NCBI GenBank assembly: GCA_963422375.2
Contig: CAXXKD010000001.1
Coordinates: 384,001 to 448,000 of the forward strand
DNA length: 64,000 nucleotides
Reading direction: 5' to 3'
DNA from: Bryobacterales bacterium
Lineage (GTDB): Bacteria > Acidobacteriota > Terriglobia > Bryobacterales > UBA6623
The notes below the pieces were generated by a model. That model saw only the letters and a list, made by a program, of their open reading frames with translations. It did not search any database and was not told the origin of the DNA. Positions 13,205-50,972 of this stretch are shown in pieces. The position numbers and the translations under genes are program-made. The first letter of the stretch is position 1. Every line of letters begins with the position of its first letter.

Positions 13205-13269
13205 TAATTCTATGAGCTCGGGATTTTTGCAAAAGGCTCAACTGCAACTGTTTTCAGGCGGTAGGTGCT

Positions 13270-21957: not shown

Positions 21958-22250
21958 GCTAGAGTCGTGCATCTCGTTGTGCGGCCGGCACCAGCCGGTC
22001 GGCGGGGCGACTCTCTCATGGAGAACCTCTGCCGTCATTGGGATCATCTTCGAGACGCCGTGGCGTTTGTCATACGTTCCGGAACGCGCCGAGTCGCCGG
22101 TCCACTTGCAAGGTTTGCGGCATCAGGGCAGGTAGGCTCGACTTGCTTGACCCTGTTGTGCCCAGCGGCAGAGTCATAGCCTTTCGTAAGGGAATTATAT
22201 ATCTGAGTTCCGAGGGAATCGAGTCGGCAAATTATCAAGCCATAATAAGA

Positions 22251-23292
22251 CCTGATTACCCACAAGACTCAGCCAAGGTTAGGAGGCGGTAAGGCATGGG
22301 CGGGGTGCGCACGGAGGCGTGGAGCAGGCGGGGGACCAGCGCCTGCAGGTCGTAGCGGCGGTTGAAGCGGTAGCGGAACTCGGCGAGGTACCGCGGCAGG
22401 TGCTTGCCGTCGAGCGCATGGCAGGTTCCCGCCAGGGACTGCTTGACGTGCGCCAGCAGCGTGTTGCTCCAGACGCAGCGGGAATCCCCGCAGCTCCGCT
22501 TCCCGCCTCCGGTGCCGGTCGGCACGTGCTCGCAGCCGGCGTCGGCCCCGCCCCGGAAGCAGGCCAAGCCGTCGGAATGCACCTCCGTGCCGGGCTGCAA
22601 GTGCCGCCCGGCCCACGCTGCCAGCGTCTTCTTGCGCAAGCCCGCCACGCTGGCCACGCTGCTCAGGCGCATCCTTGCCGGCTGGCCGTCGGCGGTGACC
22701 TGCACGGCGGCGACGAACGGCGTCTTGCCCGCCGCGCCGCGCCCGTGCTTGCCGCCGGTCCGCTCCCCGCCCCAGTAGGCATCGTCCACCTGCACGATGC
22801 CGCCCGGCGGCACGCGCTCGTCGCGCTCCTTCATCGCTTGCAGGAGCTTGTGCTTCACCTTCCAGGCCATGTTCCGGCTCACGCCCAGCTGCCGCGCCAG
22901 TTCCAGCGGCGAAACGCCGTGCTTGCCCTGCGTCAGCAGGTGGATCGCCAGGAACCAGACGGTCAGCGGCAGCTGGGTGGCGGCGAAGATCGTGCCGGCG
23001 ACGAGGGAGGTCTGGCGGTGGCAGGCATGGCACTGCCAGAGCTTGCGGGAGCGGATACGGCAGTGCCGTCGGGAGCCGCACTCCGGGCAGCGGAAGCCGT
23101 CCGGCCAGCGGGCGTTGAAGACGGCGTGCTCGCATGGCCCCTCGCTGCCGTAGTGCTGCAGGAACTTGCCCAGGCTGAGTCCCTTCTGGAATTGCACGCG
23201 ATTGCGTTTCAGCTGCTATCCCCTTTCCTATTAGAGATTTCCGACCTCCTCCAGTATAGCATATCCTCGTCTGGTGTTCGTTGGTAATCAGG
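22251..23292 (-). mobile_element. IS1595 type A, copy 2
   Basis: Same TIRs as 12172-13204; ATG replaced by CTG; 9-bp in-frame duplication (SSVASVA); no matching TSD. Confidence 0.9.
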
Positions 23293-24671
23293 TAAATCAA
23301 TTTGATATTTATTCTGGATATCTGTTGACATTTGGTGGAGTATTTTGATAGAATAGTTCCAATATATGAGGTCGTCTATGAAGCAGGAATGTCCCGGGAA
23401 GTGGTTTCGTAAAGGCATCACTCTGATTGAAGTGATCGCCATGTTCCGCGATGACGAATCCGCGGAAAAGTGGTTCGCCTCCATGCGCTGGCCCGACGGT
23501 CCGGTATGCCCCCACTGCCGCGGCTCCAGCGTGCAGTCCGGCACGGCCCACCCTTCGATGCCGTACCGTTGCCGCGGCTGCGGCAGGCGCTTTTCCGTGC
23601 GCACCGGCAGCGTGATGGCCGACACCAAGCTCGGCTACCGCACCTGGGCTGTCGCCCTGTTCCTGCTGACTACCGGCATCAAGGGCGTCTCAAGCATGAA
23701 GCTGTACCGCGACCTGGGCATCAGCCAGAAGTCGGCCTGGCACCTGGCGCACCGCATCCGCGCGTGCTGGGAGCGGCATCAGGGCCTGTTCGCCGGCCCG
23801 GTGGAGGTGGACGAGACCTACGTCGGCGGCAAGGAGCGCAACAAGCACGAGAGGAAGAAGGCCCGCGCCGGGCGCGGGCCCGTTGGCAAGACACCCGTGG
23901 CGGGGGCGCGGGACCGCGCCACGAACGCAGTGGCCGCGCGGCCGCTGCCGGGCACCGCCAAGGGCGACCTGCAGGGCTTCGTGCGCGCCCGCGTCGTGCC
24001 GGGCGCGCAGCTCCGCTCCGACGAGGCGGCGGCCTGCGCCGGCATGGAGGAGTTCCCGCACGAAGCCGTCAGGCACTCCCGCGGCGAGTACGTGCGCGGG
24101 GCAGCGCATACGAACGGCATCGAGTCGTTTTGGTCCCTGTTCAAGCGCGGCCTGTACGGAACCTATCACCGGATGAGCGTCCGTCATCTCGGCCGCTACC
24201 TGACGGAGTTCGCGGGACGGTGCAACGACCGCGACTGCGACACGGCGGAACAGATGCGGCGCATGGCGCGGGGCCTGGTCGGCCGGACGCTGACCTACCG
24301 GCAACTGGTCGGCAAGGCCGCAGTCGCGGCCGGAGCACGGTCTAGCCGGTCAGCTGCAGCCTCTCTTCACGCTCGGTGCGAAGGGCGCTCCGGATCCGGA
24401 ATCCCGCGCCGCGACCGGTGTCCGGCCTGGACTATTCATAGATGCAGCCGTCTTGGAAGGGGAGCCTCTCCACGGCAATCCGGGTTCCACCGGGGCGCCC
24501 GAGGCGGCCTCACTAGTCCGTGCGCCGCCAAATCCGCTTGCAGAATCGATTCAGATACGAACCGACCCTTCGGTGCCCACCTCGGCCGCACACGAAAGAC
24601 CCGAGCTAGACGCCGACGTCCCCAATCAGAGCAGTTCTAGCCGGATATGGCGTTGTCGGCACTCAGATATA

Positions 24672-24930
24672 TAGTGCTTGTGACAAAACCCCTGAATTCT
24701 GGCCCGATCAGCATTTCATACTACATCCTGAGGTCGGATGGATCTCCAAACACAACATATAGGGCCCAAGGTCGGAAGTTGCTCAGACGCCAATCGCGAA
24801 GATTTCCGCGCTCTACCCAGAATCGCCAGGATTTCGGATTAGTCGTAGCATTCCAGCGAAATCTTCGCCTTGAGAGATTGGACCTAACGCCTTTGTTGTC
24901 AAGGGGATACGAGTTTTGTCACGGGCACTA
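24672..24930. mobile_element. MITE family 1, copy 1 (about 260 bp), inserted in the IS1595-B right TIR
   Basis: TIRs TAGTGCTTGTGACAAAAC / GTTTTGTCACGGGCACTA; close copy at 48620-48879. Confidence 0.85.
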
Positions 24931-25734: not shown

Positions 25735-28707
25735 TCACTCGCCTTTGAATAGATCGCCCTGCTCTTTAGAACCCTCTGGTTCAGTCTCCAAATCGTTCGC
25801 CAGTCGGGAAATCTCCGACCAGCTCTGCACCAAGGTGTTATACAATAGCGCCTCGGCCGCACGCTTCTTTCGGTCGCACAAGGTATAAAGGCGGTAGCAG
25901 AGTTCACGAGCTGTTTCGGCGTAGGTGCCGAGTGCAGCTACGATCTCTGCGACACCACGTTCGCCATGCTCATCAAGATCCCGGATCAGATGGTGGACCA
26001 TTTCCCAAGCGGTCGGCCTTGTGTCGGATCTTGGGTCCCAGTCGTCGGGCAGCTCGTTTGACCTAAGTAGACGCACCTTTCCACCCTTCGACATTACGAT
26101 TCCGGTCTCCACCATGCTGGCGACGTCGGTGTTCTTCGCCTTGGAGAGCGTCTCCGCCTCCCCGAATCCGCCTTCGGTGAAGCCGTGCTGCGCGAACCAC
26201 TCGAGCGCCCAGCGCGTGGCGGCGTCGAGATCGCCCTCCTGGTCCTCCAGTACCTTGTCGAGGGCTTCGTTGATCAGCGCGAGAGCCTCCCGCACCGAGA
26301 GCGGCCGGCCCTCGGCGTCCAGCACCCTCCCGTAGCGCGTGTACACGGCCATGCCGGGGCCGATGGCGGCCTGGGCGAGATCGACGGGGGCGACGTTGCC
26401 GGACTGCAGGAGGTGCAGGGCCCGGGGCAGCTCGGCGCGCAGCGCCGTGACGAACTCGCGGCGGGTCCCCGCGGGCGCGTCGGCCGGCCGGCGTCGGCAG
26501 GCGAGGACGATGCTGGAGGCGAGGGCGTTCGTGCCCATGCCGACCAACCGATTGCCAAGCTCCGTCCGCATCGGCCACGTGCCGGTGATCGCGAATCCGG
26601 AGCGGATCGCGGCGTCCAGGAACGTCTCCCAGCCCTTCGTTTCCGATTGCTTGAAGGCGTAGTAGACCGTCACGGGGAAGCCGGGATGAGACTGTTCCGC
26701 GAGCCGTTGAAGCGCCTGTGTCATTCCGTCGAGAAAAAAGTCCTCCGCAGCCTTCTTGCTCCCGTGCCGGTACGGCGTGGCGACCAGTTCCTCCGCCTTC
26801 GGGACCGCCAGCGTTGCGAACAGATTGGGGAACACCGGCTTCAGGGACCGTCGGAGCCAGACGTAGAAGAAGTCCGACAGGTCCGCGTAGCCGATGTTGT
26901 CGTAGTACGGTGGGTCCGTTGAGATCATCCGTGACGACGACTGCAGCTCTCTTGTCGTAGCGTCCGCTTGGTCAGTCACCCCAGGTACGTGCGGAGGCAG
27001 GGCGATAGTCAGAGGGTCGACCACACACGTGATGGCGGCGTCGACGCTGCCCGTGGCGGTTCCCAGAAAATTTGGTTCGGCGTAATCCCACACCATCGGA
27101 AGCGCTTGCCGCCCAAAGCAGTGTTGAGCTTTTTGTCCAACGGGGTTCCACCGAACAAGGCTGTTCCCACTCATCGCCAATCGATCCACCGCCAACGCCA
27201 GATACAGGGACACCGCCTCGGCGTACGCGGTCGCGCCCGTCCCGCCGTCGCGCAGCGGCTTGCCGTCGTCGGGCAGGCCGGCGGCCGCGGCGTCGCGACG
27301 GACGCGCTCGGCGGCCTCCCCGACGAGGTCGGAGAAGGTAGTGAGGGCGACGAGCTGGCGAGACGTGAATAGGTCGGCCCATGTAAAGAAACCGTAGCCA
27401 CGACCGCTAACCAAGTTGGTCGTGTCGCGGTTCATCGTTTCGTCAGGGATCCAGCGCGGCCGCGCTCGCGACGCCGCATCTTCGTCGCGATGAGTCGGCG
27501 AGAGATACACGCGCCTGCCGCCGCCTTCCGCAACGACGGCCATCAGGCCCGATCCCATCCGACCAGCCATGCTTTCTGCCTTGACGTAAGCCGGGGGTAC
27601 TGGCGACCCTGACATCAGGCACCGGAAGTTCGCCCCGCGCGCGAGCTTCGTACCCCGCTTGGCCGCTACCGCATCGGGCGGCGCGCCCACCCGCACCGTG
27701 AATCGGTACCGCCGGCCTTCGATCACGGGCTCGACCCACGCCTCCTTGCCCTTCTTCGTCGACAGCATGAACGTCGACGCGAGGGGCACGTCCACGTCGG
27801 CGAAGGCCGGGTTGGGGCTCTTCACCGTCCGCGCCCACAGCCACGCGATGACCGTCAGCTCCCGGCCCTCGTACGGCTTCAGGTCGGGACGCTCCCTGAC
27901 CATTTCCGGCGTGATCTCGGCCCGCGGATACAGATGCCCGATTCGATTCCCCGCCTCGTCCCGCATCCACCGCCCGTAGCGCCGCACGTCCTCGGCCAGC
28001 CCCCGCGCGCCGCGCCACGTCCTCTCGACCAGGTTCCGCTCGGCCCGCGCCTCCGGGTGCACCGGCGCCCGGCCCGCGAACCGCGGCGGGATCTCGATCA
28101 TCGCCTTGCTGATCAGCACCGCCACCGGGTTCAGGTCGCTGGCGTGCGCCTCGAGGCCGAGGCGCTGCGCCTCCAGCGGCAGCGAACCGCCGCCCGCGAA
28201 CGGATCGTGGAACGCCGGCAGGCGATCCGGGTCGAACAGTTCGGGCGCACGCGGATGGCCGGCGTGCTCGGCGCACGCCCGCCGCCAGCTCCGCCGGATC
28301 TCGGCCCGCGCGCGCTCGAGCACCGTCTCGTTGGTGGTGTTCTCCCACACGACGAGGTCCCGGAGGATGCCGAACAGCCGCTCGCGTTCCCGCTCGGCCG
28401 CGATCTCCCGCAGCACCTGACCGTCCGTCCCATTGGCACCCGCTGCTTCATCGCCGGCCGCACGCCGCTGCCGGAGCGCCCGCTGCGCCGCACGCTTCCT
28501 CTCCGGGTTCGACAGCAGCACGTCGACGTACTCCGACGGATCGTCCACCATCTGCGCGAAGAGGACCGCCCGCGCCACCGCCAGCGGCTTGCGTGACCAC
28601 CACAGATGCAGCGTCGAGGGGTGACCGTGCCGGACAGACTTCTCCCGTGCCCCCGCCACGTTGATCTCGTCGAGCGGCAGGGCGGTCTCGATCAGTTTCT
28701 TTCTCAT
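25735..28707 (-). CDS. DUF1156 adenine DNA methyltransferase, full-length copy
   Basis: [19 protein letters not shown], motif I DPFAGGGS, motif [11 protein letters not shown]. Confidence 0.9.
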   Translation of the reverse strand: MRKKLIETALPLDEINVAGAREKSVRHGHPSTLHLWWSRKPLAVARAVLFAQMVDDPSEYVDVLLSNPERKRAAQRALRQRRAAGDEAAGANGTDGQVLREIAAERERERLFGILRDLVVWENTTNETVLERARAEIRRSWRRACAEHAGHPRAPELFDPDRLPAFHDPFAGGGSLPLEAQRLGLEAHASDLNPVAVLISKAMIEIPPRFAGRAPVHPEARAERNLVERTWRGARGLAEDVRRYGRWMRDEAGNRIGHLYPRAEITPEMVRERPDLKPYEGRELTVIAWLWARTVKSPNPAFADVDVPLASTFMLSTKKGKEAWVEPVIEGRRYRFTVRVGAPPDAVAAKRGTKLARGANFRCLMSGSPVPPAYVKAESMAGRMGSGLMAVVAEGGGRRVYLSPTHRDEDAASRARPRWIPDETMNRDTTNLVSGRGYGFFTWADLFTSRQLVALTTFSDLVGEAAERVRRDAAAAGLPDDGKPLRDGGTGATAYAEAVSLYLALAVDRLAMSGNSLVRWNPVGQKAQHCFGRQALPMVWDYAEPNFLGTATGSVDAAITCVVDPLTIALPPHVPGVTDQADATTRELQSSSRMISTDPPYYDNIGYADLSDFFYVWLRRSLKPVFPNLFATLAVPKAEELVATPYRHGSKKAAEDFFLDGMTQALQRLAEQSHPGFPVTVYYAFKQSETKGWETFLDAAIRSGFAITGTWPMRTELGNRLVGMGTNALASSIVLACRRRPADAPAGTRREFVTALRAELPRALHLLQSGNVAPVDLAQAAIGPGMAVYTRYGRVLDAEGRPLSVREALALINEALDKVLEDQEGDLDAATRWALEWFAQHGFTEGGFGEAETLSKAKNTDVASMVETGIVMSKGGKVRLLRSNELPDDWDPRSDTRPTAWEMVHHLIRDLDEHGERGVAEIVAALGTYAETARELCYRLYTLCDRKKRAAEALLYNTLVQSWSEISRLANDLETEPEGSKEQGDLFKGE
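26645..27267 (-). repeat. 623-bp inverted repeat, arm L (pairs with 35505-36127)
   Basis: Boundaries aligned by hand; protein identical and alternative-frame ORFs identical (26718-26960 vs 35812-36054). Confidence 0.9.
28204..28395 (-). repeat. About 190-bp inverted repeat, arm L (pairs with 34377-34568; near-identity continues about 100 bp further)
   Basis: [12 protein letters not shown]...LPAFHD identical in both methyltransferases. Confidence 0.8.
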
Positions 28708-29930
28708 TTCTCAACCGCAGAAACATGAAGTTCAGCGTCGCCGCGCCGTCTGACGTTCGGAAGACCGATGTCAAGTCCGGCCCGGTCGCCAAACCGAATC
28801 CCGGCACCGTCGCATGCGATTCTCAGATACCGCATCTTCCGGTCATTACTCAGATACGCAAGCAACCACCAGTTGCCCGGCAACGAGGCTCCGCCGCTCG
28901 CCATCGACTCGTTCGAGGACAGCTCTTGCCTGGTCCGCGCCACACCGCGATTCTTGCGGCCGCGCAGTTTCGGGTCGACCCGCGGCAGGAAACCCGGATC
29001 GCGTGCGGCCAGGGCTGCAAATATCGCCACGTACGCCTCCTTGGCGTTCCTTGCGCGCCGCTCCTCGCCGAGCAGCCGATAGCGCACTGCGCCCTTGCCG
29101 GGTGCGGGCGATTCCGGCCGGGTAGGAACGGCGATTCCAAGGCCAAGCACCCGCGCCTCCGGCCGCGCTGATGCCTTTCTCGATCCAGGCGTGGGAGTGT
29201 CGGACGTCCTGCGCTGTTGACGGCCATCATCCGGCTTCAGGCGGCGCAGAAAGTCAGCAACGTCCCGTCTCGCGGGGCTGCCTTCGGTAAGCAACGACGT
29301 CGCCTGTGTCAGCAGGACCGCCAAGCGCTCGTCGAGGTCGCCTGCGACAAGTTGCGCCCATGCACGCGGAATCGCCTCCCGCGCCTTGTGCCTATCGAGC
29401 CGCGCGTTGAGATCTTCCCGCGCGAAGTCGGCGGCCTTCCCCGACTTGGTGTTCGCGCAGGACAGATAACGCTCGAGTTTCGCGGCGACCTCGTCGAGCG
29501 AATCCGTCTCGATGTCGAAGGTGCTGACAAGGCGTTCTGCATACGTTCCGGCGCTCTGCGTCGAGTGGAAGCGCCAGTTGACGCCGTTCGTCAGCAAGGC
29601 CAACGGGGCGCCGGCGTGGAAGGAGTACTCGAACAATTGCCGGTCGCCATCGGATTGGCCGATCCGTTTCAGCACGCACTCGGTCGACTTCAGTTCGACG
29701 ATGCACCGCGGGTTGCGGTTCGACACGCACAGCGCCATGTCGATCCGCCGCGTCGAGGTCTTCAACCTCAGCGAGTATTCGGCGCAGACTTGGTCAGGAT
29801 CGTATACGTCCCATCCCAACGCGTGGAGGATGGGTTGAACGATCCGGGTGCGGACCGCCGTCTCGTTGGGGTATGCGCTCCGCGAGATCCCGTGCCGGAT
29901 TCTCTCGAGAGTCTTCGTCAGATCATGCAC
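28704..29930 (-). CDS. HsdR N-terminal-like PD-(D/E)XK restriction endonuclease with extra C-terminal domain
   Basis: NETAVRTRIVQPILHALGWD, RIDMAL, VELK, QLFEY, LLTNGVNWRF; ATGA coupling to DUF1156. Confidence 0.75.
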   Translation of the reverse strand: MHDLTKTLERIRHGISRSAYPNETAVRTRIVQPILHALGWDVYDPDQVCAEYSLRLKTSTRRIDMALCVSNRNPRCIVELKSTECVLKRIGQSDGDRQLFEYSFHAGAPLALLTNGVNWRFHSTQSAGTYAERLVSTFDIETDSLDEVAAKLERYLSCANTKSGKAADFAREDLNARLDRHKAREAIPRAWAQLVAGDLDERLAVLLTQATSLLTEGSPARRDVADFLRRLKPDDGRQQRRTSDTPTPGSRKASARPEARVLGLGIAVPTRPESPAPGKGAVRYRLLGEERRARNAKEAYVAIFAALAARDPGFLPRVDPKLRGRKNRGVARTRQELSSNESMASGGASLPGNWWLLAYLSNDRKMRYLRIACDGAGIRFGDRAGLDIGLPNVRRRGDAELHVSAVEK

Positions 29931-29993
29931 TGCCCAACGGTCTCCAGCCGCGCCGGCGTCCCGACTTGCAACTCATCTCGCCGGCCGCGGGCA

Positions 29994-30053
29994 TCACCAC
30001 TCTTCCCGCAGGCGCTGCATGACCGAACCATCGCCGTCGAGAATCATCTTCAT
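29994..30053 (-). pseudogene. Collapsed toxin-antitoxin remnant (RHH-type antitoxin start fused to PIN-toxin end)
   Basis: MKMILDGDGSVMQRLREEW*; ends in the same GAGTGGTGA as the PIN remnant at 32377-32385; preceded by TGcTAGGAT. Confidence 0.4.
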
Positions 30054-30942
30054 GGGAAATCCTAGCACTTCACGCACTACAGCCGGTCACGCTTCCTTCG
30101 AGGCCGTCGCCGAGGAGGTCTTCCGCCGCTACGGCCGCGCCTGGAAGCCGCGGACCACCACCGTCAACCGCGCGTACCTGCGCAATCAGATTCTGCCCTG
30201 GTTCCGCGGCCGCCCGATCGGCGACATCACGCACCATGACGTGCAACGCTGGTTCGCAACCCTGCACGCGACGCCGGCGGCGGCGAACCGCTCGCTCCCG
30301 ATCCTGTCGGTGATCCTGCGTCAGGCGGAGACCTACGGCCACCGGCCGGACGACAGCAACCCGTGCACGGGTCTGAGACGTTACCGGGAGCGCGGACGCG
30401 AGCGGTTTCTGACCGGCGACGAGATCCGACGGCTCGGGACAGCGCTGGCGGCGCACGAGACCGTCGTGCCACTGGCCGTTGCGGTAGTGCGCCTCCTGCT
30501 GCTGACCGGCTGCCGGCAGGGCGAGGTCCGGACGCTGCGGTGGCAGGACTATCGCGAGGGCCATCTGTTCCTGCGCGACAGCAAGACCGGCCCGCGGACC
30601 GTTTGGCTGGCGTCGGCCGCCCGCGCCGTGCTCGACCGGCTACCCCGCACGGTCGAGTGGACCTTCCCCGCGGCGACCGGCGGCGGTCCGATGCCGACAG
30701 AGACGCTGTATCGCTGCTGGCGCGTCGTCCGCACAGCGGCGGGCATGCCTGACGTGCGGCTGCACGACCTGCGCCACAGTTACGCGAGCTTCGCGCTGCG
30801 GCGGGGCGAGACCGTGCTGACCATCGGTCGTCTTCTGGGACACCGCGACCCGGCCACCACGCTGAAATACACGCACGTCGCCAACCCGCTGGTTCGCAGC
30901 GCGGTCGAAGCCGTCGGAGCGGTTCTGGATGCAGAGCGATGA
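30052..30942 (+). CDS. Tyrosine recombinase/integrase 1 (no arm-binding domain)
   Basis: LLTGCRQGE, DSKTG, HDLRH, LLGH, TTLKY: catalytic R-K-H-R-H-Y intact; start uncertain (30019 or 30052). Confidence 0.9.
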   Translation: MGNPSTSRTTAGHASFEAVAEEVFRRYGRAWKPRTTTVNRAYLRNQILPWFRGRPIGDITHHDVQRWFATLHATPAAANRSLPILSVILRQAETYGHRPDDSNPCTGLRRYRERGRERFLTGDEIRRLGTALAAHETVVPLAVAVVRLLLLTGCRQGEVRTLRWQDYREGHLFLRDSKTGPRTVWLASAARAVLDRLPRTVEWTFPAATGGGPMPTETLYRCWRVVRTAAGMPDVRLHDLRHSYASFALRRGETVLTIGRLLGHRDPATTLKYTHVANPLVRSAVEAVGAVLDAER

Positions 30943-32212
30943 CGCGCCGACGCTCCGTGCCTTCGTCGCGGGAGCGTGGAAGTCGGCGTGCTACGAGCGC
31001 TGCAAGCCATCGACTCGCAAGCGCATGGACAGCGCCTTGCGGGCCCAACTGCTGCCGACCTTCGGTGCGCGGCGGCTCGATCGAATCGGCCGGAAGGCGG
31101 TCCACCTGTGGTTCGATTGCTACAGCCGGACGGCACCGGCCGGAGCGAACCGCACGCTGGACGTGCTGCGGCAGATTTTCAATCACGCCGTCGCGTGCGG
31201 ACACGTCACGACCAATCCGACTCGCGACGTCCGACACAATCGGCGTCTCCAGCGGACACGCTTTCTGTCGCGCGTCGAAATCGACCGCCTGCATGAGGCT
31301 CTGGACGCGCATCGCGGACGCGGCTCGGGCGAGCAACAGGCGGAGATCATTCGTCTGCTGCTGTTGACCGGGTGCCGGAAGAGCGAGATCGTGCACTTGC
31401 GCTGGTCGGAGGTCAGCGAGGAGTCGCTGCATCTGACAGACAGCAAGACCGGCCCGCGGACGGTCTTGCTGAACGTGCGAGCGCGCGCCGTTCTCGAGCG
31501 GCAGCCCCGAGCGGGCAGCGCGTACGTGTTCCCTTGGCTGGCCGATGCGTCGCAGAGCCGTTCGGGCGAGCTGTCCCTGTGGCGGAAGGTGCGCCGACAG
31601 GCAGGGATCGCGGACGCGCGCCTGCACGATCTTCGGCATACCTTCGCGAGCCACGCCGTGATGCAGTCCGTTCCGCTGCCAGTGGTTTCGCGCCTGCTCG
31701 GCCATTCCCAGGTCCGGATGACGCTCCGCTACGCGCATGTCGGCGACCGCGAGACCGAGGCGGCGGCCGAGCGGATCGGAGACGCCCTCGCGGCGCTCTT
31801 GTCCGAGCCTGTCCCCGACGCGCGGGAACCCGAAACGGCCCGGAACCCGGCCCGCCGTTCCGCTGGCGGCGGAGAGTCCTCGGCGGCGGAAGAGACCGCG
31901 GTCACGTTCTTGACAGCGAGCCATGCAGGTGGGATACTGCCGCAAGATGTGGAGAGCGTGAACGCTGGGGAGCTTCGTCAATCCCTTGGCAAGGTTCTCG
32001 GCCGGCTCGAACGTGGCGGCGAGCCCGTTCTGGTGTGTCGCAGGCGAACGCCGGCCGCGGTCCTCGTAAGCCTCGAGGATTACTGCGAACGGTTCCTCGA
32101 CCGCGTTGCCGATGATCGGCGACGAGAAGTGGTCGCCCGGTTGAAGCAGCTTGAATTCCAGTCGCCGGCTGTCCGAACGACCCTCGACGCGCTGCGCGAC
32201 TTGCGGTCGTGA
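30929..32212 (+). CDS. Tyrosine recombinase/integrase 2, reading through in frame into a Phd antitoxin
   Basis: LLTGCRKSE, DSKTG, HDLRH, LLGH, MTLRY; paralogous to integrase 1. Confidence 0.88.
   Translation: MQSDDAPTLRAFVAGAWKSACYERCKPSTRKRMDSALRAQLLPTFGARRLDRIGRKAVHLWFDCYSRTAPAGANRTLDVLRQIFNHAVACGHVTTNPTRDVRHNRRLQRTRFLSRVEIDRLHEALDAHRGRGSGEQQAEIIRLLLLTGCRKSEIVHLRWSEVSEESLHLTDSKTGPRTVLLNVRARAVLERQPRAGSAYVFPWLADASQSRSGELSLWRKVRRQAGIADARLHDLRHTFASHAVMQSVPLPVVSRLLGHSQVRMTLRYAHVGDRETEAAAERIGDALAALLSEPVPDAREPETARNPARRSAGGGESSAAEETAVTFLTASHAGGILPQDVESVNAGELRQSLGKVLGRLERGGEPVLVCRRRTPAAVLVSLEDYCERFLDRVADDRRREVVARLKQLEFQSPAVRTTLDALRDLRS
31910..31938 (+). promoter_or_regulatory. Putative sigma70 promoter for the Phd-PIN-AAA-DUF4276-MTase arm
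   Basis: TTGACA-17 nt-GATACT with TGn extension, about 10 nt before GTG 31949. Confidence 0.55.
31949..32212 (+). CDS. Phd/YefM family antitoxin
   Basis: VNAGELRQSLGKVLGRLERGGEPVLVCRRRTPAAVLVSLEDY pattern. Confidence 0.75.
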   Translation: MESVNAGELRQSLGKVLGRLERGGEPVLVCRRRTPAAVLVSLEDYCERFLDRVADDRRREVVARLKQLEFQSPAVRTTLDALRDLRS

Positions 32213-32385
32213 TCGTGCTGGCGCAGGCCCTGTCGGAACTGACCCGATCTGCGCGGGAACGTGATGCACTCCCTGCACACCGCGGTTCTGATGCGCGAGC
32301 ACGGCGTCAGCCGCATCCAAACCCGCGATGTCGGTTCCGTCAGTTCCGGTTGCTGACAGTGGACGACCCGCTCGGAGAGTGGTGA
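32209..32385 (+). pseudogene. VapC/PIN toxin C-terminal remnant
   Basis: DLRGNVMHSLHTAVLMREHGVSRIQTRD...DDPL; N-terminus deleted, frameshifted. Confidence 0.65.
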
Positions 32386-32407
32386 TGGTGCGGCCAAGGT
32401 GATGGCG

Positions 32408-33586
32408 ATGCAGATCGAACACATCGCCATACGGAACTACCGGGCCTTCAGGCACGCGGAATTCGAGAAGTTGCCGAGGATGATGGCGGTAGTCGGCGCG
32501 AACGGTACCGGCAAATCCACGTTTTTCGACGTGCTGACGTTCCTGCAGGACGCACTGGCCCGGAACGCGGAATCAGCCGTCGCCCGGCGCGGGGGGTTCC
32601 GCGAGCTGGTCAGCCGCGGACAGAGCGGACCGGTGGGAGTGACGATCAAGTTCCGCGAAGAGGACGGACCGCTCGCCACCTACCTGCTGGACGTGGCCGC
32701 GAACAACGGCCGCGTGGTCGTGGAGCGGGAAATCCTGCGCTACCGGCGCGGAACGGGCGCGGGGCGGCCGTGGCACTTCGTTGACTTTTCACGGGGTTCG
32801 GGACAGGCGATTACGAATGAAGGCGCCTATGGCGAGCCGGGCGCCAGGATGGAAAGGAAGGCATACCGTCTGGGCGATCCGAGCATCCTGGCCATCAAGG
32901 GTCTCGGGCAGTTCAGCGAGTTCCGGGTTGTATCCGAGTTCCGGAGCATGATCGAGAACTGGCACGTCTCCGATTTCCACATCGCCGACGCCAGACCCAG
33001 TGCGGAAGCCGGCTGCGCCGAGCACCTTTCCACCCGCGGCGACAACGTGGCGCAGGTTGCGCAGTACCTGTACCGGAACCACCGTGAACGCTTCGAACGC
33101 GTGCTGACCGTCATGCGGCGGCGCATCCCCGGGATGAGCCGCGTCGAGGCGAAACCGACCGAAGATGGCCGGCTCGTTCTGCGTTTCAAGGACGGCAGCT
33201 TCAGCGATCCATTCATCGCCCGCTACGTTTCCGACGGCACCGTCAAGATGTTCGCCTATCTCGTCCTGCTCCACGATCCCAAACCCCATCCGCTGCTGGC
33301 GATCGAGGAACCGGAGAACCAGCTCTACCCGGAACTGCTGGAAGAGCTGGCCGAGGAATTTCGCGACTACGCCCGGCGCGGAGGCCAAGCGTTCGTGTCG
33401 ACGCACTCGCCCGATTTTCTGAACGGCGCACGGATCGAGGAGATCTTCTGCCTAGTCAAGCGGAGTGGTTTCACAACCGTGCGGCGGGCGTCCGACAGCG
33501 AAACGCTGTGCCGGCTCGTCGACGAAGGCGACCGGCCCGGTGCCTTGTGGAAGCAGGGGCTGCTCGAGAACGCGGATCTCCCATGA
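32408..33586 (+). CDS. ABC-type AAA ATPase (AAA_21/AAA_15-like)
   Basis: GANGTGKST, SDGT signature, IEEPENQLYP, VSTHSP. Confidence 0.9.
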   Translation: MQIEHIAIRNYRAFRHAEFEKLPRMMAVVGANGTGKSTFFDVLTFLQDALARNAESAVARRGGFRELVSRGQSGPVGVTIKFREEDGPLATYLLDVAANNGRVVVEREILRYRRGTGAGRPWHFVDFSRGSGQAITNEGAYGEPGARMERKAYRLGDPSILAIKGLGQFSEFRVVSEFRSMIENWHVSDFHIADARPSAEAGCAEHLSTRGDNVAQVAQYLYRNHRERFERVLTVMRRRIPGMSRVEAKPTEDGRLVLRFKDGSFSDPFIARYVSDGTVKMFAYLVLLHDPKPHPLLAIEEPENQLYPELLEELAEEFRDYARRGGQAFVSTHSPDFLNGARIEEIFCLVKRSGFTTVRRASDSETLCRLVDEGDRPGALWKQGLLENADLP

Positions 33587-34161
33587 GCCGCGTCATCTTC
33601 CTGCTCGAGGAACGCTCGATGAAGGCGCTGCTCGAGAAGCTTCTTCCGCGAGTCGTCCAGGATCTCCCGTTCCTCTGCGTGCCGCATGAAGGAAAGGCCG
33701 ATCTGGAAAAGAGTGCGCCTAGGAAGATCCGCGCATGGAGGGAACCGGGTGTGCGGTTCGTGATCGTGCGGGACCAGAACGGCGGCGACTGTCGCGCCGT
33801 CAAGAGTCGATTGTTGCGTGTGTGTCAATAGGCCGGACGTACCGATGTGCTCGTGCGCATCGTGTGCCGTGAACTTGAAGCCTGGTACCTGGGAGAATCC
33901 GCTGCGCTTGCCGACGTGTACGGCGACGACGGACTCCGGGGAATCGAAAGGCAGGCGCGGTTCAGGGACCCGGATGCGGTCGCGCATCCGGCTAGGGTGG
34001 TGTCCGATCTGGTCTCGGAATTCCAGAAAATCTCCGGGGCGCAGCAGCTCGGCGCACGCCTTACTCGGGAGGGGAATCGGTCTCGCAGCTTCCAGGTGTT
34101 GCTGGATGGATTGGATCGCATCGCCACGGAGTTGCATGCGAGTCGCCCTGTGCAACGATGA
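33583..34161 (+). pseudogene. DUF4276/RloB-like TOPRIM-fold protein with one in-frame TAG (33829-33831)
   Basis: IFLLEERSMKALL, HEGKADL, VRDQNGGDC, ELEAWYLG, NRSRSF; both halves in the same frame. Confidence 0.75.
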
Positions 34162-36656
34162 GGACTGTGCGGAAGAAGCTGATCGAGGTCGCCCTGCCGC
34201 TCGACGCCATCAATGCGGCGGCGGCGCGGGAGAAATCGATTCGCCACGGTCATCCCTCGACGCTGCATCTGTGGTGGGCGCGGCGGCCGCTGGCGGCGGC
34301 GCGGGCAGTCCTCTTCGCGCAGCTGGTGGACGATCCGTCGGCGCGTCCGGACCTGTTTCCCACGGAGAAGGCCCGGGAGCGGGAACGCGAGCGGCTGTTC
34401 GGCATCCTCCGGGACCTCGTCGTGTGGGAGAACACCACCAACGAGACGGTGCTCGAGCGCGCGCGGGCCGAGATCCGGCGGAGCTGGCGGCGGGCGTGCG
34501 CCGAGCACGCCGGCCATCCGCGTGCGCCCGAACTGTTCGACCCGGATCGCCTGCCGGCGTTCCACGACCCGTTCGCGGGCGGCGGTTCGCTGCCGCTGGA
34601 GGCGCAGCGCCTCGGCCTCGAGGCCCACGCGAGCGACCTGAACCCGGTGGCGGTGCTGATCAACAAGGCGATGATCGAGATCCCGCCGCGGTTCGCGGGC
34701 CGGGCGCCGGTGCATCCGGATGCCCGGGCCGAGCGGAACCTCGTCGAGAAGGCATGGCGCGGCGCGCGGGGGCTGGCCGAGGACGTGCGGCGCTACGGGC
34801 GGTGGATGCGGGAGGCGGCGGCGGAGCGGATCGGGCATCTGTACCCGGCGGTGGAGGTCACGCCGGCGCTGGTGCGGGAGCGTCCGGACCTGCAGCGGTA
34901 CCAAGGCCGCAAGCTGACGGTGATTGCGTGGCTGTGGGCGCGGACGGTGCGGAGTCCGAACCCGGCGTTCGCGGACGTGGAGGTGCCGCTGGCGTCGACG
35001 TGGATGCTGTCGACGAAGAAGGGCCGGGAGGCGCATGTCGAGCCGGTGATCGAGGGGCGGGGGTATCGGTTCGAGGTGAAGGTCGGCGCGCCGCCGGATG
35101 CGGCAGCTGCCAAGCGGGGCACGAAGGCTGGCGGCAGCGGCAAGCCTTTCCTCTGCCTGATGTCGGGAACGCCGATGCCGTTCGACTACCTGCGGGCGGA
35201 GGGCAAGGCGGGACGGATGGGTTCACGTCTGCTCGCAGTCGTAGCGGAGGGCGACCGCGGCCGAATCTACCTGTCGCCAACTGCTGGGCAGGCACTCGCG
35301 AGCCATGAAGCCAAGCCGGGGTGGACTCCGGAGACCGATCTGCCCCAAAGGGCGCTCGGTTTCCGCGTTCAAGAGTACGGGATGCTTCGCTGGCGGGACC
35401 TCTTCACATCCCGCCAGCTTGTCGCCCTCACTACCTTCTCCGACCTGGTGGGGGAGGCGGTGGATCGCGTCCGCCGCGACGCCGCGGCGGCAGGGCTGCC
35501 CGAGGACGGCAAGCCGCTGCGCGACGGCGGGACGGGCGCGACCGCGTACGCCGAGGCGGTGTCCCTGTATCTGGCGTTGGCGGTGGATCGATTGGCGATG
35601 AGTGGGAACAGCCTTGTTCGGTGGAACCCCGTTGGACAAAAAGCTCAACACTGCTTTGGGCGGCAAGCGCTTCCGATGGTGTGGGATTACGCCGAACCAA
35701 ATTTTCTGGGAACCGCCACGGGCAGCGTCGACGCCGCCATCACGTGTGTGGTCGACCCTCTGACTATCGCCCTGCCTCCGCACGTACCTGGGGTGACTGA
35801 CCAAGCGGACGCTACGACAAGAGAGCTGCAGTCGTCGTCACGGATGATCTCAACGGACCCACCGTACTACGACAACATCGGCTACGCGGACCTGTCGGAC
35901 TTCTTCTACGTCTGGCTCCGACGGTCCCTGAAGCCGGTGTTCCCCAATCTGTTCGCAACGCTGGCGGTCCCGAAGGCGGAGGAACTGGTCGCCACGCCGT
36001 ACCGGCACGGGAGCAAGAAGGCTGCGGAGGACTTTTTTCTCGACGGAATGACACAGGCGCTTCAACGGCTCGCGGAACAGTCTCATCCCGGCTTCCCCGT
36101 GACGGTCTACTACGCCTTCAAGCAATCCGAGCGGAAGGGGGATGGCGGCATCGCCAGCACCGGCTGGGAAACATTCCTGTCCGCCGTTATCGGTACCGGC
36201 TTCGCCATCACCGGCACGTGGCCGATGCGGACCGAGCTGGGCAACCGCATGGTCGGCATGGGCACCAACGCCCTCGCCTCCAGCATCGTCCTCGTGTGCC
36301 GCCGGCGCCCGGCGGCCACGCGCCGCGAGTTCCTGGCCGCCCTGCGCGCGGAGCTGCCCCCGGCGCTGCGCCTGCTGCAGTCCGGCAACATCGCCCCCGT
36401 CGATCTCGCCCAGGCCGCCATCGGCCCCGGCATGGCCGTTTACACGCGCTACGGGAGGGTGCTGGACGCCGAGGGCCGGACGCTCTCGGTGCGGGAGGCT
36501 CTCGCGCTGGGCGCTCGAGTGGTTCGCGCAGGACGGCTTTGCCGAAGGCGGATTCGGAGACGCGGAGACGCTCTCCAAGGCGAAGAACACCGACGTCGCC
36601 AGCATCGTGTGTTGGTCAACGCGGTCCTTGAAAGGCGACGCACTACTCATTGTTAG
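34158..36656 (+). pseudogene. DUF1156 methyltransferase, second inverted copy, C-terminally truncated
   Basis: Motifs I and IV intact; 65-bp deletion at CGCGCTG (36503-36509) causes a frameshift; homology ends about 36609. Confidence 0.88.
35505..36127 (+). repeat. 623-bp inverted repeat, arm R
   Basis: Reverse complement of 26645-27267. Confidence 0.9.
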
Positions 36657-36735: not shown

Positions 36736-39700
36736 TTACTCCGATTCGAATCCTTGACTGCTGAACTTCAGCGTGCGGCAGTTCTCTGTCACCGTTCGCA
36801 CGACGTGGTCGGGCGCGCCGTTCGGAATGGCCGCATCGATCTCGATCGTGACTGTGACGCTCGCTCCCGTGAGGCCAGCGAGGTGGGCAACCACTTCTTC
36901 AGAGATCCGGCCGGCGTCGCGCCCGGTGCGAGCGGCGTCGACCCCGACCGTGCCATGAAATCGGGCCGGACGTGGAGCAGGTGGCAGCGGTGGGCTAGGC
37001 CCGCGCCCAGGCCCAGTTACTCCGCCCTCGCTCTCTTGGTCGTACGGCGGGCGCGGTGTGTCAGTTTCTTTCTCCGCATCGATCTGTCGTTGAGCGACAT
37101 CGGCCTTGACTATCAGTCCGGCCGAGTACTCGTCGTTGAGGTTGATGATCTGGCCGCCACGCAATCCCACATAGCGACCGGTCTGTTCGTCGAAACTGTC
37201 CGCGTACCCGAAGCTATCGTCAATCCACGTCACTAGCCCGACGCCGTCGGCGACGGCTTGTAGCAAGACTGCAGGATCCAGCAGCCGCGGCAGGTACGGA
37301 TACTGTGCGAAGTCTTCTATGAGCTGCTGGACCGCCACGTGGTTTCCCCTCCACAGCGGTATCTGATCAAGTGCCAGCCGGAGTCGCGTGCCTGCGAATC
37401 GATGGGCTAGCACGTCGTCTCTCCTGAGCCGTTCGGCTACGCGGGCCGCTAATCCTTCCTTTCCGGTCAACCGCGTAGCTTCCAATGTGATCGGATCGGT
37501 CGGCGCGTCCTGGACCGGGGCTAGCAGCCACTGATACGTCTCCGGAAGCCTAGCTTCGACTGTTTGGTTAGCTGTGTTCACCTGCGTCTCCGCCTGTTTC
37601 ACCTGATTGGGCGAGAGATTGAGCGCCTCCCGCTCTGCAACGATCGAGCTCCACGCTATGTGGCGGCGTACCGCATCGTCAAGGTCTTGAAGCCTCGTCT
37701 TGTCCGGTGCAAGGAAGACGAGACAATTGCAGTACAAGCGCGGCGCGGCCCCCCGTGACTTGAGAATGTCATTGGCCGCAGTCTCCGCCGGGGAGTCGCC
37801 ACTTCTTTGGTGCGGGTGCTCCGTCCCGAGCACTACCAGGCGCGTCTCCCGCTCGTCGGGGACGTCGTGGCCGGATTCCGGCGCGCGATGGATCCCTCGA
37901 AAACCACCGGTCTCTTTGAGTGCATCGCGCAGTGCAGCGCTGATTGCTTGCGCCACGCGGTCCTCGTCGCCGCGGAGCTGCTCGGCACGGTCCTCGGCAA
38001 GTTTCGTAACGGTCGCCCGCGTGTCGTACCAGTACCGCGACCCGTCTTGGTACAGGTACGTGGCCGAAGCGGCCAATCGTCGAAGCGCATCGCCGAAGAC
38101 AGCCGGCGTTTCGCCTGGGAGCACGCAGCCGAGCTTGATCCTCCTGTCATCGAGGCCGCGGTGGGCCGCGCCCGCCGTGGGTGCCGATCCGAGATAGAGG
38201 GCACGTGCAACTCGTCGGCAAGCCGAGAACTTGCCCAAGGCTGCCACGTTGCTGTCTATCCGCTGTGGAAGGGCGTTCTGGCCGTCGACATCCTTCTCGA
38301 TCACGGGCGTCCAGTTGTCCGGCAGGTAGCGGGTCAGTTCCGACAGCACTTGCGGGTCGTCGATCGACAGGTGGGCGGGCAGGATCAACGGGTTGCGGTC
38401 GCCCTTTTCCCACAGGCTGTGGATGACCGCCGCCATCAGCCTCAGCACGCCCCGGGTGCGCTGGAACGTCACCAGAGTTGACCAATCGGTGTACAGTCGG
38501 TCAAAAATCTCTGGGTGGATCGGGTAGGCGGCCCTCAGCCGCTTCTCGTAATCGGCATCCCGACACTCCGACGGAAACTCCTGATGCGCCGTGCGATAGA
38601 GGCGGGCGAACGTCTGGGCGACGACGTCGCGGTCCTTGAATTGCTCGGGGGCGGCTAGCGGTTCGAACAATCGCCGCCGGACGATCTCGAACCCCTCCTC
38701 GGCACTGGCCGGCCGCCACGACGACTCGACGCGCCCGACGACGTTCCGCAGGCGTTCGAGCGCTTCCCGACCGCGGTGCCCGCCCACCTCCACGTCGTCC
38801 AGCTGCGCATGGGGAAACCCTGTTGTGTCCGAGGCCGGGAGACTAATCACGAGCAGGCAGTTGCCAACAGCCTTCGCCGACTCGGTGAGCGCTTGGGCGA
38901 AGGTGAACTGGGTCTCGAAGCTGCCGGCTGGCAGGTCGCTCTGGTCGTGGAGCTGGCGCGCGTAGGCGACCCACTCGTCGATCAGGATCAGGCAAGGCCC
39001 GTGATCGGCAAGAATCTGGCGGAGCCTGTCGCCTGGGCTCGTCGCATGCTTGTCGTCGTCGGCTACGCGCGCGTACGCACGTGCGCCTCCCATCTGCCAC
39101 GCCAACTCGCCCCACAGCGTGCGCACGACCGTGCCGTCGGGCTTGGTGACGGGATTGCCTGGCGAGATCTTGTTGCCCACTAGGACGACCCGCCTCGCGG
39201 ACGGCAAGCTCGTTGCATCCGCCTCCTGAAGCACCGCTTCAATGCCTTCCAGTTCGCCTGGCATCGTGCCGGAGAACAGGTGATACAGGGCGAGCATCGA
39301 GTGGGTCTTGCCGCCCCCGAAATTGGTCTGAAGCTGGACCACGGGATCGCCGCCGCGACCGGCGAGGCGCCGCACTGCGCCGACCAGCATTCCTCGGAGG
39401 CTCTGCGTGAGGTAGGTGCGACGGTAGAACTCGACCGGATCGCGATAGGCGGGGGTCCCTTCGTTGAGGTGGACCTGCCAGAGATCAGCGGCGAATTCTG
39501 CCTGCTGATACCGCCCGCTTGCCACGTCTTGGTGCGGCGCGACCACCTCGCGCCACGACTTGAGCCCTCCGGTCGCGGCGCTGCCGATGGGGAGGCTGGC
39601 CTGCTTGCGTCGTTCTCCCCGCGCCTGCTCGTCGAATCGGACGCGCAGGAGCTCCATCTTGAGCCTCTCGACGTCGGTTGCTTGCGTGGCCGAGACGGCC

Positions 39701-40062
39701 GTTAGCAGGAGGTTTGCAGTGTCGAGCACGCGGTACGCGTCGTCGCTGGAGAACCGCGCCTGATGCGCCCAGCGGTTTCTGTGGTCCCGCAACTCGGCGA
39801 CGAAGCTGCGCTCGGCTCGTCCGAGAGTTTCGCGGAACACCTCGTTCCACGTCTCCCACATCAGCTTGAGCAGCAGTTGGACGTCCCAATCGGTCACTTG
39901 CCGCTGGCCGATCGGGGCGCTTTCCACGAAGCGCTGCAGCGTGGATCCGTCCAGGCGCCGCGACTTGATCGCTTGCTGCACCTCTCGCCTTACGAACGGG
40001 CCGAGCCCTGCCCTCAAGAGCTCAAGCGCTCTTCCGACGCGCTCGTGGTTGGTGGCCGCCAT
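36736..40062 (-). CDS. DUF499 AAA+ ATPase with N-terminal Swt1-like HEPN domain
   Basis: RNRWAH (RxxxxH), LQTNFGGGKTHSM, ILIDEW, EIVRRRLF, YPIHPE, FQRTRGVLR. Confidence 0.9.
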   Translation of the reverse strand: MAATNHERVGRALELLRAGLGPFVRREVQQAIKSRRLDGSTLQRFVESAPIGQRQVTDWDVQLLLKLMWETWNEVFRETLGRAERSFVAELRDHRNRWAHQARFSSDDAYRVLDTANLLLTAVSATQATDVERLKMELLRVRFDEQARGERRKQASLPIGSAATGGLKSWREVVAPHQDVASGRYQQAEFAADLWQVHLNEGTPAYRDPVEFYRRTYLTQSLRGMLVGAVRRLAGRGGDPVVQLQTNFGGGKTHSMLALYHLFSGTMPGELEGIEAVLQEADATSLPSARRVVLVGNKISPGNPVTKPDGTVVRTLWGELAWQMGGARAYARVADDDKHATSPGDRLRQILADHGPCLILIDEWVAYARQLHDQSDLPAGSFETQFTFAQALTESAKAVGNCLLVISLPASDTTGFPHAQLDDVEVGGHRGREALERLRNVVGRVESSWRPASAEEGFEIVRRRLFEPLAAPEQFKDRDVVAQTFARLYRTAHQEFPSECRDADYEKRLRAAYPIHPEIFDRLYTDWSTLVTFQRTRGVLRLMAAVIHSLWEKGDRNPLILPAHLSIDDPQVLSELTRYLPDNWTPVIEKDVDGQNALPQRIDSNVAALGKFSACRRVARALYLGSAPTAGAAHRGLDDRRIKLGCVLPGETPAVFGDALRRLAASATYLYQDGSRYWYDTRATVTKLAEDRAEQLRGDEDRVAQAISAALRDALKETGGFRGIHRAPESGHDVPDERETRLVVLGTEHPHQRSGDSPAETAANDILKSRGAAPRLYCNCLVFLAPDKTRLQDLDDAVRRHIAWSSIVAEREALNLSPNQVKQAETQVNTANQTVEARLPETYQWLLAPVQDAPTDPITLEATRLTGKEGLAARVAERLRRDDVLAHRFAGTRLRLALDQIPLWRGNHVAVQQLIEDFAQYPYLPRLLDPAVLLQAVADGVGLVTWIDDSFGYADSFDEQTGRYVGLRGGQIINLNDEYSAGLIVKADVAQRQIDAEKETDTPRPPYDQESEGGVTGPGRGPSPPLPPAPRPARFHGTVGVDAARTGRDAGRISEEVVAHLAGLTGASVTVTIEIDAAIPNGAPDHVVRTVTENCRTLKFSSQGFESE

Positions 40063-40151
40063 TTCCAACAGTCTATCTGTAGGCTGGCCACCGGCCCGGA
40101 ACCGCTTGATCCTCTGCTGGCGCCGTGCCGTCGGATCGGGCTTCGGCGCAG

Positions 40152-43721: not shown

Positions 43722-43999
43722 GGCAGAATCGTACCCATTGTCCCCGTGGGTTGACGTGCTGGGATACCGGGGCAACGGACGTCAGGGAACTGGACGAAGA
43801 CTCTGGCTCGGTTCGGACGGGACGAAGCCGTACGTCGGCTCGCGCGCACGACGAGGGGACGCGGGGATGGAGTCCGAGGCGCCGAACACCGGATGTGCCC
43901 AACTCGGTCCGGGCGCCAAGTCCCGACGCGAGCTGTCTTGGACTACGCTGACCAACTCAAGGTGGCCGCACGGAGCGCCGGCGTGCCGGTTACGGGGAC

Positions 44000-48037: not shown

Positions 48038-48622
48038 TGCGACGCTAGCGTACGCGGCGCTGGCGATTCTTCCCGTTGCTGCCTTGGCCCAAGGCGTCGC
48101 GGCGCGGGGCGTTCTGCCGAGGCCCCGGGGCGAGCCCTCTGGCCCGCCATTCCATGCGAATTTCGTCGACTCCATGCGAGTTTCGTCGACGTGGCGTAGG
48201 AAGCCGGGCTGCGCAGGCCGACCGTCTACGGCGAGGACGACCGCAACGACTACCTTCTCGAAACGATAGGCGGCGGCGCTCGGCTTGATTTCGACGGGGA
48301 CGGCTGGCTCGACCTCTTGCTCATGGGCGGGACGCGATTCGCGAACCCGTCCCTGGCCAGTTCCTTCCAGCTGCACCGCAACCGCGGCGACGGGACCTTC
48401 GAGGAAGTGACCGCCGAGGCCGGCCTCCACTGGGTCGGCTGGGCCTCGAGCGCGACTGTCGGCGACGTCGACAACGATGGCGACGCGGATCTGTTCGTGA
48501 CCTTCCGGGGGCGCCACGCCCGGTTCCTGAACGGCGGCGGCGGATTCGCGGAGGTGACGGAGGTCACCGGGTTTGCGGACGAGGACGTGCGCTGGGGATC
48601 CGGGACCACGTTCCTAGACTAG
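48038..48622 (+). pseudogene. FG-GAP/CRTAC1 (ASPIC-UnbV-type) protein, 5' fragment
   Basis: DFDGDGWLDL, RNRGDGTFEEVT, GDVDNDGDADLFV; 20-bp duplication 48151-48190, internal stop, cut by a MITE. Confidence 0.75.
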
Positions 48623-50917: not shown

Positions 50918-50972
50918 TAGTGCTTGTGACAAAACCCTGATATTTTGGGAATTCTAGCTGATAGATCCCGAC

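Follow-up and report, generated by a model that had tools for sequence, protein, structure and literature searches.

A complete and an inverted, truncated hmaB gene flank recombinases that likely swap predicted specificity segments in an Hma defence locus

Two DUF1156 methyltransferase genes in a Bryobacterales genome point away from each other around a pair of tyrosine recombinases, which raises the question of whether the DNA between them inverts and, if so, what the inversion exchanges. The genes lie in a window of 64,000 nucleotides (contig CAXXKD010000001.1, positions 384,001 to 448,000 of the forward strand), whose own coordinates are used throughout, and they belong to a defence locus of the Hma type. 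Based upon comparison with related loci, we consider it likely that the recombinases invert DNA at two nested sites in the complete and the inverted, truncated copy of hmaB, swapping predicted specificity segments of the methyltransferase.

The complete hmaB gene (25735–28707, minus strand) encodes a protein of 990 amino acids with motif I (DPFAGGG, residues 168–174), a DPPY motif (residues 598–601) and a helical C-terminal region. The second copy (34158–36656, plus strand) is truncated at its C-terminus and has deletions of 12 and 65 bp near its end; its frame is lost after the 65-bp deletion, and homology stops near 36609. An earlier reading of the sequence (the original prediction) had seen both the divergent arrangement and the restriction of the C-terminus to the left gene, and it had reported two blocks shared by the copies. 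Both blocks are exact and inverted: one of 623 bp (26645–27267, minus; 35505–36127, plus), which holds the DPPY motif and a variable module, V2, and one of 191 bp, predicted as about 190 (28205–28395, minus; 34377–34567, plus), in the conserved N-terminal part. Overall, the copies align at 87.4% identity across 2151 bp. The strong divergence that had been claimed between the blocks is real over about 300 bp (57–75% identity), but the remaining stretch is mostly 79–96% identical per 100 nt. A second variable module, V1, is present as allele a in the complete gene (RGANFRC...DETMNRDTTNL; approximately 27370–27660, minus) and as allele b in the truncated one (GGSGKPFLC...; approximately 35112–35402, plus). 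Near the end of the truncated copy lies a third repeat, missed by the original prediction, in which stretches of 49, 39 and 22 bp match exactly, the first two within 26305–26393 and 36391–36479. Between the copies are recombinase 1 (30055–30942, plus; start codon uncertain) and recombinase 2 (30929–32212, plus), both of which keep the predicted intact catalytic residues, R-K-HxxR-H-Y.

Identical blocks can signal a collapsed assembly, and two independent short-read runs speak to this. In run X3, the unitigs break at the repeat edge at 26645, and depth is 201.1 and 199.8 in the repeat, 102.7 in the inner segment and 101.7 and 98.7 in the flanks; run X5 roughly agrees (530–656 in the repeats versus 276–349). 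The blocks are real two-copy repeats at about twice the depth of their surroundings. The segment between the hmaB copies is at single-copy depth, with no excision or amplification seen.

PADLOC identifies HmaA (1610 bits), HmaB (1439 bits) and HmaC (1118 bits) at this locus, together with a HEC-01 pair, and both hmaB copies match DUF1156 and the PADLOC HmaB model. HmaA (40152–43775, minus) is an SNF2 helicase with Helicase_C and a NOV_C nuclease domain, and HmaC (36736–40068, minus) combines HEPN_Swt1 with a DUF499 ATPase. We also considered, and rejected, the class behind models NF042963 and NF042962, which we take to be the DUF499-DUF3780-DUF1156 restriction-like system: the scores were 119 bits (cutoff 1000) and 175 bits (cutoff 1200), respectively. 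The DUF499/DUF1156/SNF2 defence system of the original prediction therefore stands as Hma and not as that second class. On its gene content, the locus is a Hma system (Payne et al., 2021, PMC8565338; PMC11232893), named elsewhere as a Type-1, DUF499-centred BREX-related system (10.1101/2025.10.09.681413). It shares with published Hma loci the SNF2 helicase-nuclease, the DUF1156 methyltransferase, the HEPN-DUF499 ATPase and an embedded AAA_21 pair. The portions of those papers available to us describe an A-B-C order and report no inversion or phase variation, whereas here all three genes are present in the order A-C-(inverted partial B)-recombinases-B, which marks the locus, as far as sequence can tell, as a rearranged member. 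Integrases near 19.1% of hmaA genes have been read as mobility genes (PMC11232893).

The layout is not confined to the window. Inverted DUF1156 pairs that flank recombinases also occur elsewhere in the same genome, in 8 further genomes of its genus and in other phyla. Among 79 loci, taken from the best 80 of 625 confirmed matches (a choice that favours near relatives), an inverted second hmaB copy is present in 10; a recombinase pair lies between the copies in 9 of these 10 and is present in 1 of the 69 others. Within the genus, close relatives of recombinase 1 occur in 10 of 31 genomes: in nine, including the window's own, between divergent hmaB copies, and in the tenth on a 3-kb contig. When 401 genomes of the phylum were searched starting from the recombinase, 3 more matches emerged, all between inverted hmaB copies and 2 of them new (L157, with the same layout as L057, was not counted as new), and 5 of 25 metagenome matches adjoin hmaB, three of the five being repeats of one locus. 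By their titles, the loci of the genome collection span Acidobacteriota, Gemmatimonadota and Binatia.

Both orientations are found. The recombinases face the truncated copy at 7 loci (the window, L032, L034, L036, L113, L121 and L156) and the complete copy at 11 (L001, L033, L035, L037, L051, L052, L061, L062, L074, L130 and L155). One hmaB copy is cut by a contig end in L074, L121 and L130, and the tally omits L038 and L057, which have two complete copies, as well as L039, L043, L081, L117 and L131. On a recombinase tree with 14 labelled rows (L001, which has only remnants, is omitted), orientation changes 4 times, with a shuffled mean of 4.8, and the starred branches force at least 2 changes. 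The nearest relative of the window's recombinase pair, in L037 (84%), has the opposite orientation.

Several related loci depart from this layout. In L038 and L057, the recombinases sit between inverted hmaB copies that are both nearly complete; the 4.4-kb inverted duplication of L038, close to the end of a contig, may in part be an artefact. L054 and L067 carry directly repeated hmaB copies without recombinases, with L067 inside the cassette clade, and in L081 two hmaB 3' halves, both cut at contig ends, converge on one contig on which no recombinase was seen.

Where would the crossovers fall? Mapped by codon (without L056, the same locus as L036, and L059), hmaB copies are more alike within than between loci at codons 1–320, 461–500 and 741–800, and hardly so in V1 (341–440), V2 (501–600) and the catalytic core. 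Third-position identity is 0.89 within versus 0.55 between loci at codons 481–500, and 0.95 versus 0.65 at codons 781–800; at codons 601–720 it is little raised (0.53–0.68 versus 0.43–0.59). Where the zone at codons 461–500 ends, Tyr503 is encoded by TAT in 33 of 34 cassette copies versus 37 of 63 single-copy genes, whereas all but one of the other well-filled Tyr columns favour TAC or are even in cassette copies. The motif TGTAT is present in 33 of 35 cassette copies versus 20 of 68 others, the frameshifted complete copy of L037 being omitted from the motif counts. This anomaly was noted before we found a pair of loci, L130 and L034, that looks like a natural recombinant. Their recombinase regions are 90–100% identical per 300 nt, and the outer flank is joined on opposite sides. 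The complete gene of L130 is 84–100% like the truncated copy of L034 up to codon 500 and then 93–100% like its complete copy. The switch falls within 10 bp, GTC GGG GTG T, and the two L034 copies share only those 10 identical bases there. Such a length is too short for ordinary homologous recombination.

Transferred to the window, this switch places a probable inner crossover interval, site B, at 27204–27213 (minus) and 35559–35568 (plus), ending inside the conserved TGTAT. The original prediction had placed the crossover in the 623-bp block. The interval does lie near the 5' end of that block, which starts 63 bp before Tyr503, but the block itself is probably a conversion tract and not a designed repeat, because the same block is non-identical in 16 of 17 other cassettes (L074 unscored). 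The V2 and DPPY region is 100% identical between the window copies, versus 41–53% nucleotide identity for V2 in 15 other cassettes and 79% in the frameshifted L037; conversion has probably erased V2 diversity here.

A likely outer crossover, site C, lies where the truncated copies end, at a sequence that begins TACAC and encodes YTRY; in the window, its candidate core is at 26331–26343 in the complete gene (minus) and 36441–36453 in the right copy (plus). Counted from the first base of the first YTRY Tyr codon, copy-to-copy identity extends for 13–19 nt in 13 of 14 loci, versus 39 nt in the window, where a mismatch directly precedes the site. Both new loci from the recombinase-first search also truncate at YTRY, and a strict site-C pattern is present in 33 of 33 cassette copies versus 6 of 64 others. 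L038 and L032 are identical at codons 116–504 and show no mismatch at codons 774–803, with V2 and V3, a third variable module, exchanged between these stretches, which is the product expected from use of both sites. TGTA is common to B and C, although on opposite strands. Among recombinase-less single-copy genes nested in the cassette clade, 0 of 5 keep both site motifs. We also tried a dyad-symmetric form of site C; only some loci fit it, and we claim no full site. The noncoding bases at +5 to +7 after a shared TACG/CACG in the truncated copies are GT(T/C) in 10 of 13 and may be part of the recombination site.

A structure model of HmaB (pLDDT 84.4) shows a class I S-adenosylmethionine-binding core (best Z 14.8, root-mean-square deviation 2.5, 165 residues aligned by VIA-align) and an insert at about residues 195–575 that follows core strand 2 and holds V1 and V2, with motif I before it and DPPY after it; the model shows V3 as a loop of low confidence at residues 716–730. 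The same insert has been called the target-recognition domain (10.1101/2025.10.09.681413). Across 32 cassette copies, V1 and V2 form 7 and 15 discrete clusters, respectively, that are reused across phyla, and V1b occurs with 6 different V2 clusters. Mantel tests on these copies (L037 omitted) give −0.08 for V1–V2, which are unlinked, and 0.36 (p 0.001) for V2–V3, which are linked. The location of V2 and V3 between sites B and C would keep the two coupled. As discrete hypervariable alleles inside a predicted recognition insert, the V1 and V2 modules are candidate specificity segments.

Both recombinases differ from their relatives in a way that bears on their function. Directional integration relies on arm-binding domains, which simple invertases are not known to carry. 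Arm-DNA-bind_3 was found in 0 of 22 hmaB-linked recombinase-1 frames versus 14 of 15 other relatives (E 0.01); the count excludes recombinase 1 of L137 and L139 (cut by contig ends), L149–L150 (repeats of L148) and the fragments L151–L154. In the window, recombinase 1 lacks the arm-binding domain, and recombinase 2 lacks an N-terminal extension. The gap from recombinase 1 to recombinase 2 is −12 to +31 nt in hmaB loci versus 228–279 nt in other relatives. The nearest non-hmaB relatives of both enzymes are tandem island integrase pairs (L050 and L132–L147) in the same order, with orthologous matches of 54–67% identity in L132–L147; these pairs have about 90–120 extra N-terminal residues and unrelated cargo, and lack inverted hmaB copies. 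Because the arm-binding domain is absent from the hmaB-linked enzymes, we infer that an island integrase pair was converted into an invertase. Nor does the window locus resemble an integrative island: besides the missing Arm-DNA-bind_3, its repeats are inverted and not direct, and its inner segment is at single-copy depth. Recombinase 2 is in frame with a Phd/YefM antitoxin domain in the window, and with a Phd domain also in L032, L037, L051, L057 and L121; such a fusion could couple inversion to toxin-antitoxin autoregulation. One of the island pairs, L050 (8444–14490; contig C1 of this genome), is a fused, arm-bearing pair beside an MmeI-type restriction-modification (RM) gene and near a tRNA-Leu, and L142 shows a similar pairing of integrase and RM gene.

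Taken together, the locus shows several features of a shufflon: a complete gene with an inverted partial copy, adjacent intact recombinases, and both orientations among relatives, with the crossover known from one pair. The shufflon-like switch of the original prediction is thus well supported by comparison, through the conserved layout, the two orientations across genomes and the L130/L034 recombinant. In the mechanism that we propose, the recombinases would invert the DNA between the hmaB copies. Inversion at site B would swap the N-terminus and V1, and inversion at site C everything up to about codon 799, including V1, V2, the catalytic core and V3, so that the two sites together could yield up to four alleles. 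V1 and V2/V3 would read parts of the DNA target, so that the phage DNAs restricted by HmaA would change with the state. A more extended version can be put forward tentatively, as a possibility that we hold to be less than even. Here the arm-less integrase pair would be a two-subunit invertase acting on two asymmetric, oppositely directed hmaB sites to give four specificities per cassette; it would act in trans on a recombinase-less cassette of the same genome and supply V1 and V2/V3 modules to a pool shared across phyla; and HmaB would be a single-chain N6-methyladenine (m6A) enzyme with a two-part modular target, like HsdS.

What would inversion do in the window itself? All in-silico inversion products are open: 954 residues for site B, which brings in the alternative V1 segment, 954 for the 191-bp block, 958 for site C, and 992 for B followed by C. 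Since V2 is identical in both copies, only V1 can switch here, and V1a would alternate with V1b. The pairing of V1b with the window's V2 exists as a complete gene in L051. A second difference would alternate with it: the complete allele lacks 8 residues through a 24-bp deletion, including the S-T of STGWETF, and is unique in this among the aligned copies. The S-T segment is present at 90% or more across the alignment, STGWETF is intact in the truncated window copy, and it is regained in the two in-silico products that use site C. No insertion row appears at the 24-bp deletion in the read data, though the deletion got no separate read check.

The second cassette of this genome, L001 on contig C2, offers a comparison. 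It consists of a complete hmaB, recombinase remnants and a truncated hmaB, shares V1 with the window and differs in V2, and its 200-bp exact repeat ends at the truncation. The 20 kb examined there contain no hmaA or hmaC match; the cassette would have to rely, in trans, on the genes of the window. Tracts of 96–100% identity shared by the window and C2 copies indicate that the two cassettes also exchange DNA. In L001:6866-14250, recombinase 1 is deleted and PIN/Phd-type modules precede both hmaB starts. Read joints that skip V2 mostly fit the C2 copies. A joint at 26907–27194 and 35578–35865 (X3, X5) reveals a further V2 allele, at about one third of single-copy depth, that is not assigned to either assembled cassette. 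An opposite-strand read joint at 28043–34920 (X2, X5) connects positions that are not homologous and was not used as evidence for inversion.

Several observations weigh against the proposed mechanism. Reads that span a repeat were seen for neither orientation, the contigs breaking at repeats of at least 30 bp so that they cannot phase them, and about 1 in 100 of each of the Hi-C runs X6 and X7 gave 0 reads at the locus. L130 is a single contig from a short-read metagenome, with its other copy cut, and may be a chimeric join. The strict site-C pattern was fitted on its own loci; of the 4 copies at the two new loci it fits 1. The cassette genes are mostly one clade, so that motif counts are not independent. 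The independence of V1 and V2 was dropped as proof of inversion: 61 single-copy genes show the same pattern as the cassettes (V1–V2, 0.02; V2–V3, 0.32). No solved structure matched the HmaB insert, and Foldseek returned nothing at E 0.001 for the insert or the whole model; VIA-align on the insert gave helical matches only, with Z at most 7.2 (best: root-mean-square deviation 3.3, 97 aligned), and a PDB sequence search with an 81-row profile gave 0 matches. In the one test in print, HmaB overexpression left T4 sensitivity unchanged (PMC11232893). Finally, the window copy shows decay: each of its hmaB genes has deletions, the HEC-01 partner is interrupted by a stop and the PIN gene is a remnant.

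In a rival explanation, the segment inverts but switches activity or expression, through a defective and an intact allele, the upstream genes or a promoter, and not specificity. The deletion of the S-T segment from the complete window allele alone would fit this, as would the different passengers upstream of each hmaB start and the lack of any structural match or assay (PMC11232893, in the text available) that shows DNA reading by V1 or V2. In other cassettes, however, neither copy has lost the STGWETF segment, and the copies differ chiefly at V1, V2 and V3, which are discrete alleles reused across phyla; moreover, site B separates V1 from V2, and V2 and V3 are linked. We consider a switch of activity or expression alone unlikely. 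It is also rather improbable that a duplication was reshuffled by RecA-type recombination and gene conversion, with the recombinases as leftovers of the element that delivered it. Long exact blocks (623, 191, 382 and 901 bp) are good RecA substrates, the C2 cassette was homogenised despite its deleted recombinase 1, and the two cassettes share nearly identical tracts. Yet the crossover between L034 and L130 is confined to 10 identical bp, truncation occurs at the same codon across phyla, the repeats are inverted and not direct as after integration, both recombinases are catalytically intact and arm-less, and the equally conserved catalytic core is barely homogenised.

The decay raises a further reading, in which the family is a true shufflon and the window copy a frozen relic without useful switching. 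The erased V2 diversity, the 24-, 12- and 65-bp deletions, the mismatch before site C, the broken HEC-01 partner and the PIN remnant all fit a relic. Against it, the frames of the two recombinases are intact, as are hmaA and hmaC, the copies do not differ at site B, and the four in-silico products are open frames of 954–992 residues; we regard a relic as quite improbable. That the identical blocks are an assembly artefact is the least credible reading and largely refuted: although the genome is metagenome-derived and the related locus L038 has a long inverted duplication near a contig end, independent short-read graphs give about twice the flanking depth and break at the block edges. Inversion that swaps predicted specificity segments thus remains the reading that we favour.

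How does the hmaB cassette compare with known switches? Inversion of defence methyltransferase and specificity genes is already described: programmed inversions occur in BREX type 1 pglX, DISARM drmMI and Cj0031-like Type II RM genes (Milman et al., 2023, PMC9881135), and the hsdS shufflon of the Streptococcus pneumoniae cod locus, with its recombinase PsrA, has nested inverted repeats of 15, 85 and 298 bp (PMC7096588). With the first group, the cassette shares a complete gene and an inverted partial copy, a nearby recombinase, nested repeats and a variable middle, whose exchange is proposed for hmaB. With the cod locus, where the repeats lie in specificity genes, it shares short and long nested repeats and, as proposed here, combinatorial exchange of two variable regions, and a further likeness is that short recombinase-dependent cores lie inside long repeats there. 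Here, though, the target is HmaB, and the main text of PMC9881135 contains 0 occurrences of DUF1156, DUF499 or Hma. The spare hmaB copy keeps the whole N-terminus, so that every single inversion yields a complete gene, whereas one inversion at the L. rhamnosus pglX locus removes the C-terminus (PMC9881135). Two recombinases stand in tandem, unlike in any of these systems as described in the parts of the papers seen. The cassette also lacks HsdS, HsdM and HsdR; a single-chain methyltransferase contains the modules, one of which is grouped with the catalytic core. In line with the original prediction that such switching was undescribed for DUF499/DUF1156 systems, we found no paper on hmaB inversion in the literature covered, which excludes subscription journals, and the supplementary tables of Milman et al. 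may list such loci. New here are the mapped crossover interval, the arm-less recombinases, the linkage of the modules and the genome with two cassettes.

These features matter because the activity of HmaB has been described in different ways, first as a 5-methylcytosine enzyme (PMC8565338) and later as an N6 enzyme (10.1101/2025.10.09.681413), with no RM-like effect in its sole test (PMC11232893). A conserved cassette, apparently built to swap two segments, argues for a sequence specificity of HmaB under diversifying selection and points to candidate segments for it. With 7 V1 and 15 V2 clusters among 32 copies, there is a natural allele library that opens the recognition code to methylome sequencing, and the absence of the arm-binding domain from the recombinase pair suggests a route by which an integrase becomes an invertase.

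Other features of the window include passengers and elements that resemble mobile DNA. Within the invertible segment, an HSDR_N-domain gene (28704–29930, minus; 408 amino acids) lies directly upstream of the complete hmaB. Downstream of recombinase 2 are the PIN toxin gene remnant (32215–32374, plus), 81% identical to the PIN gene of the C2 cassette, and the Hma-embedded candidate defence pair HEC-01, comprising an AAA_21 ATPase (32399–33586, plus) and a DUF4276 partner broken by an in-frame TAG (33583–34161, plus). Insertion sequence-like copies, 83–95% identical, lie at 12170–13214, 22250–23295 and 53755–54819, and at 23293–24702 and 49395–51690; the open reading frame at 23366–24640 is an IS1595 transposase. 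A 260-bp element resembling a miniature inverted-repeat transposable element, with many loose-ended copies in the runs, occurs at 24672–24930, just past the end of the complete hmaB, and at 48620–48879. A 19-bp G+C-rich unit forms a tandem array at 56355–56464.

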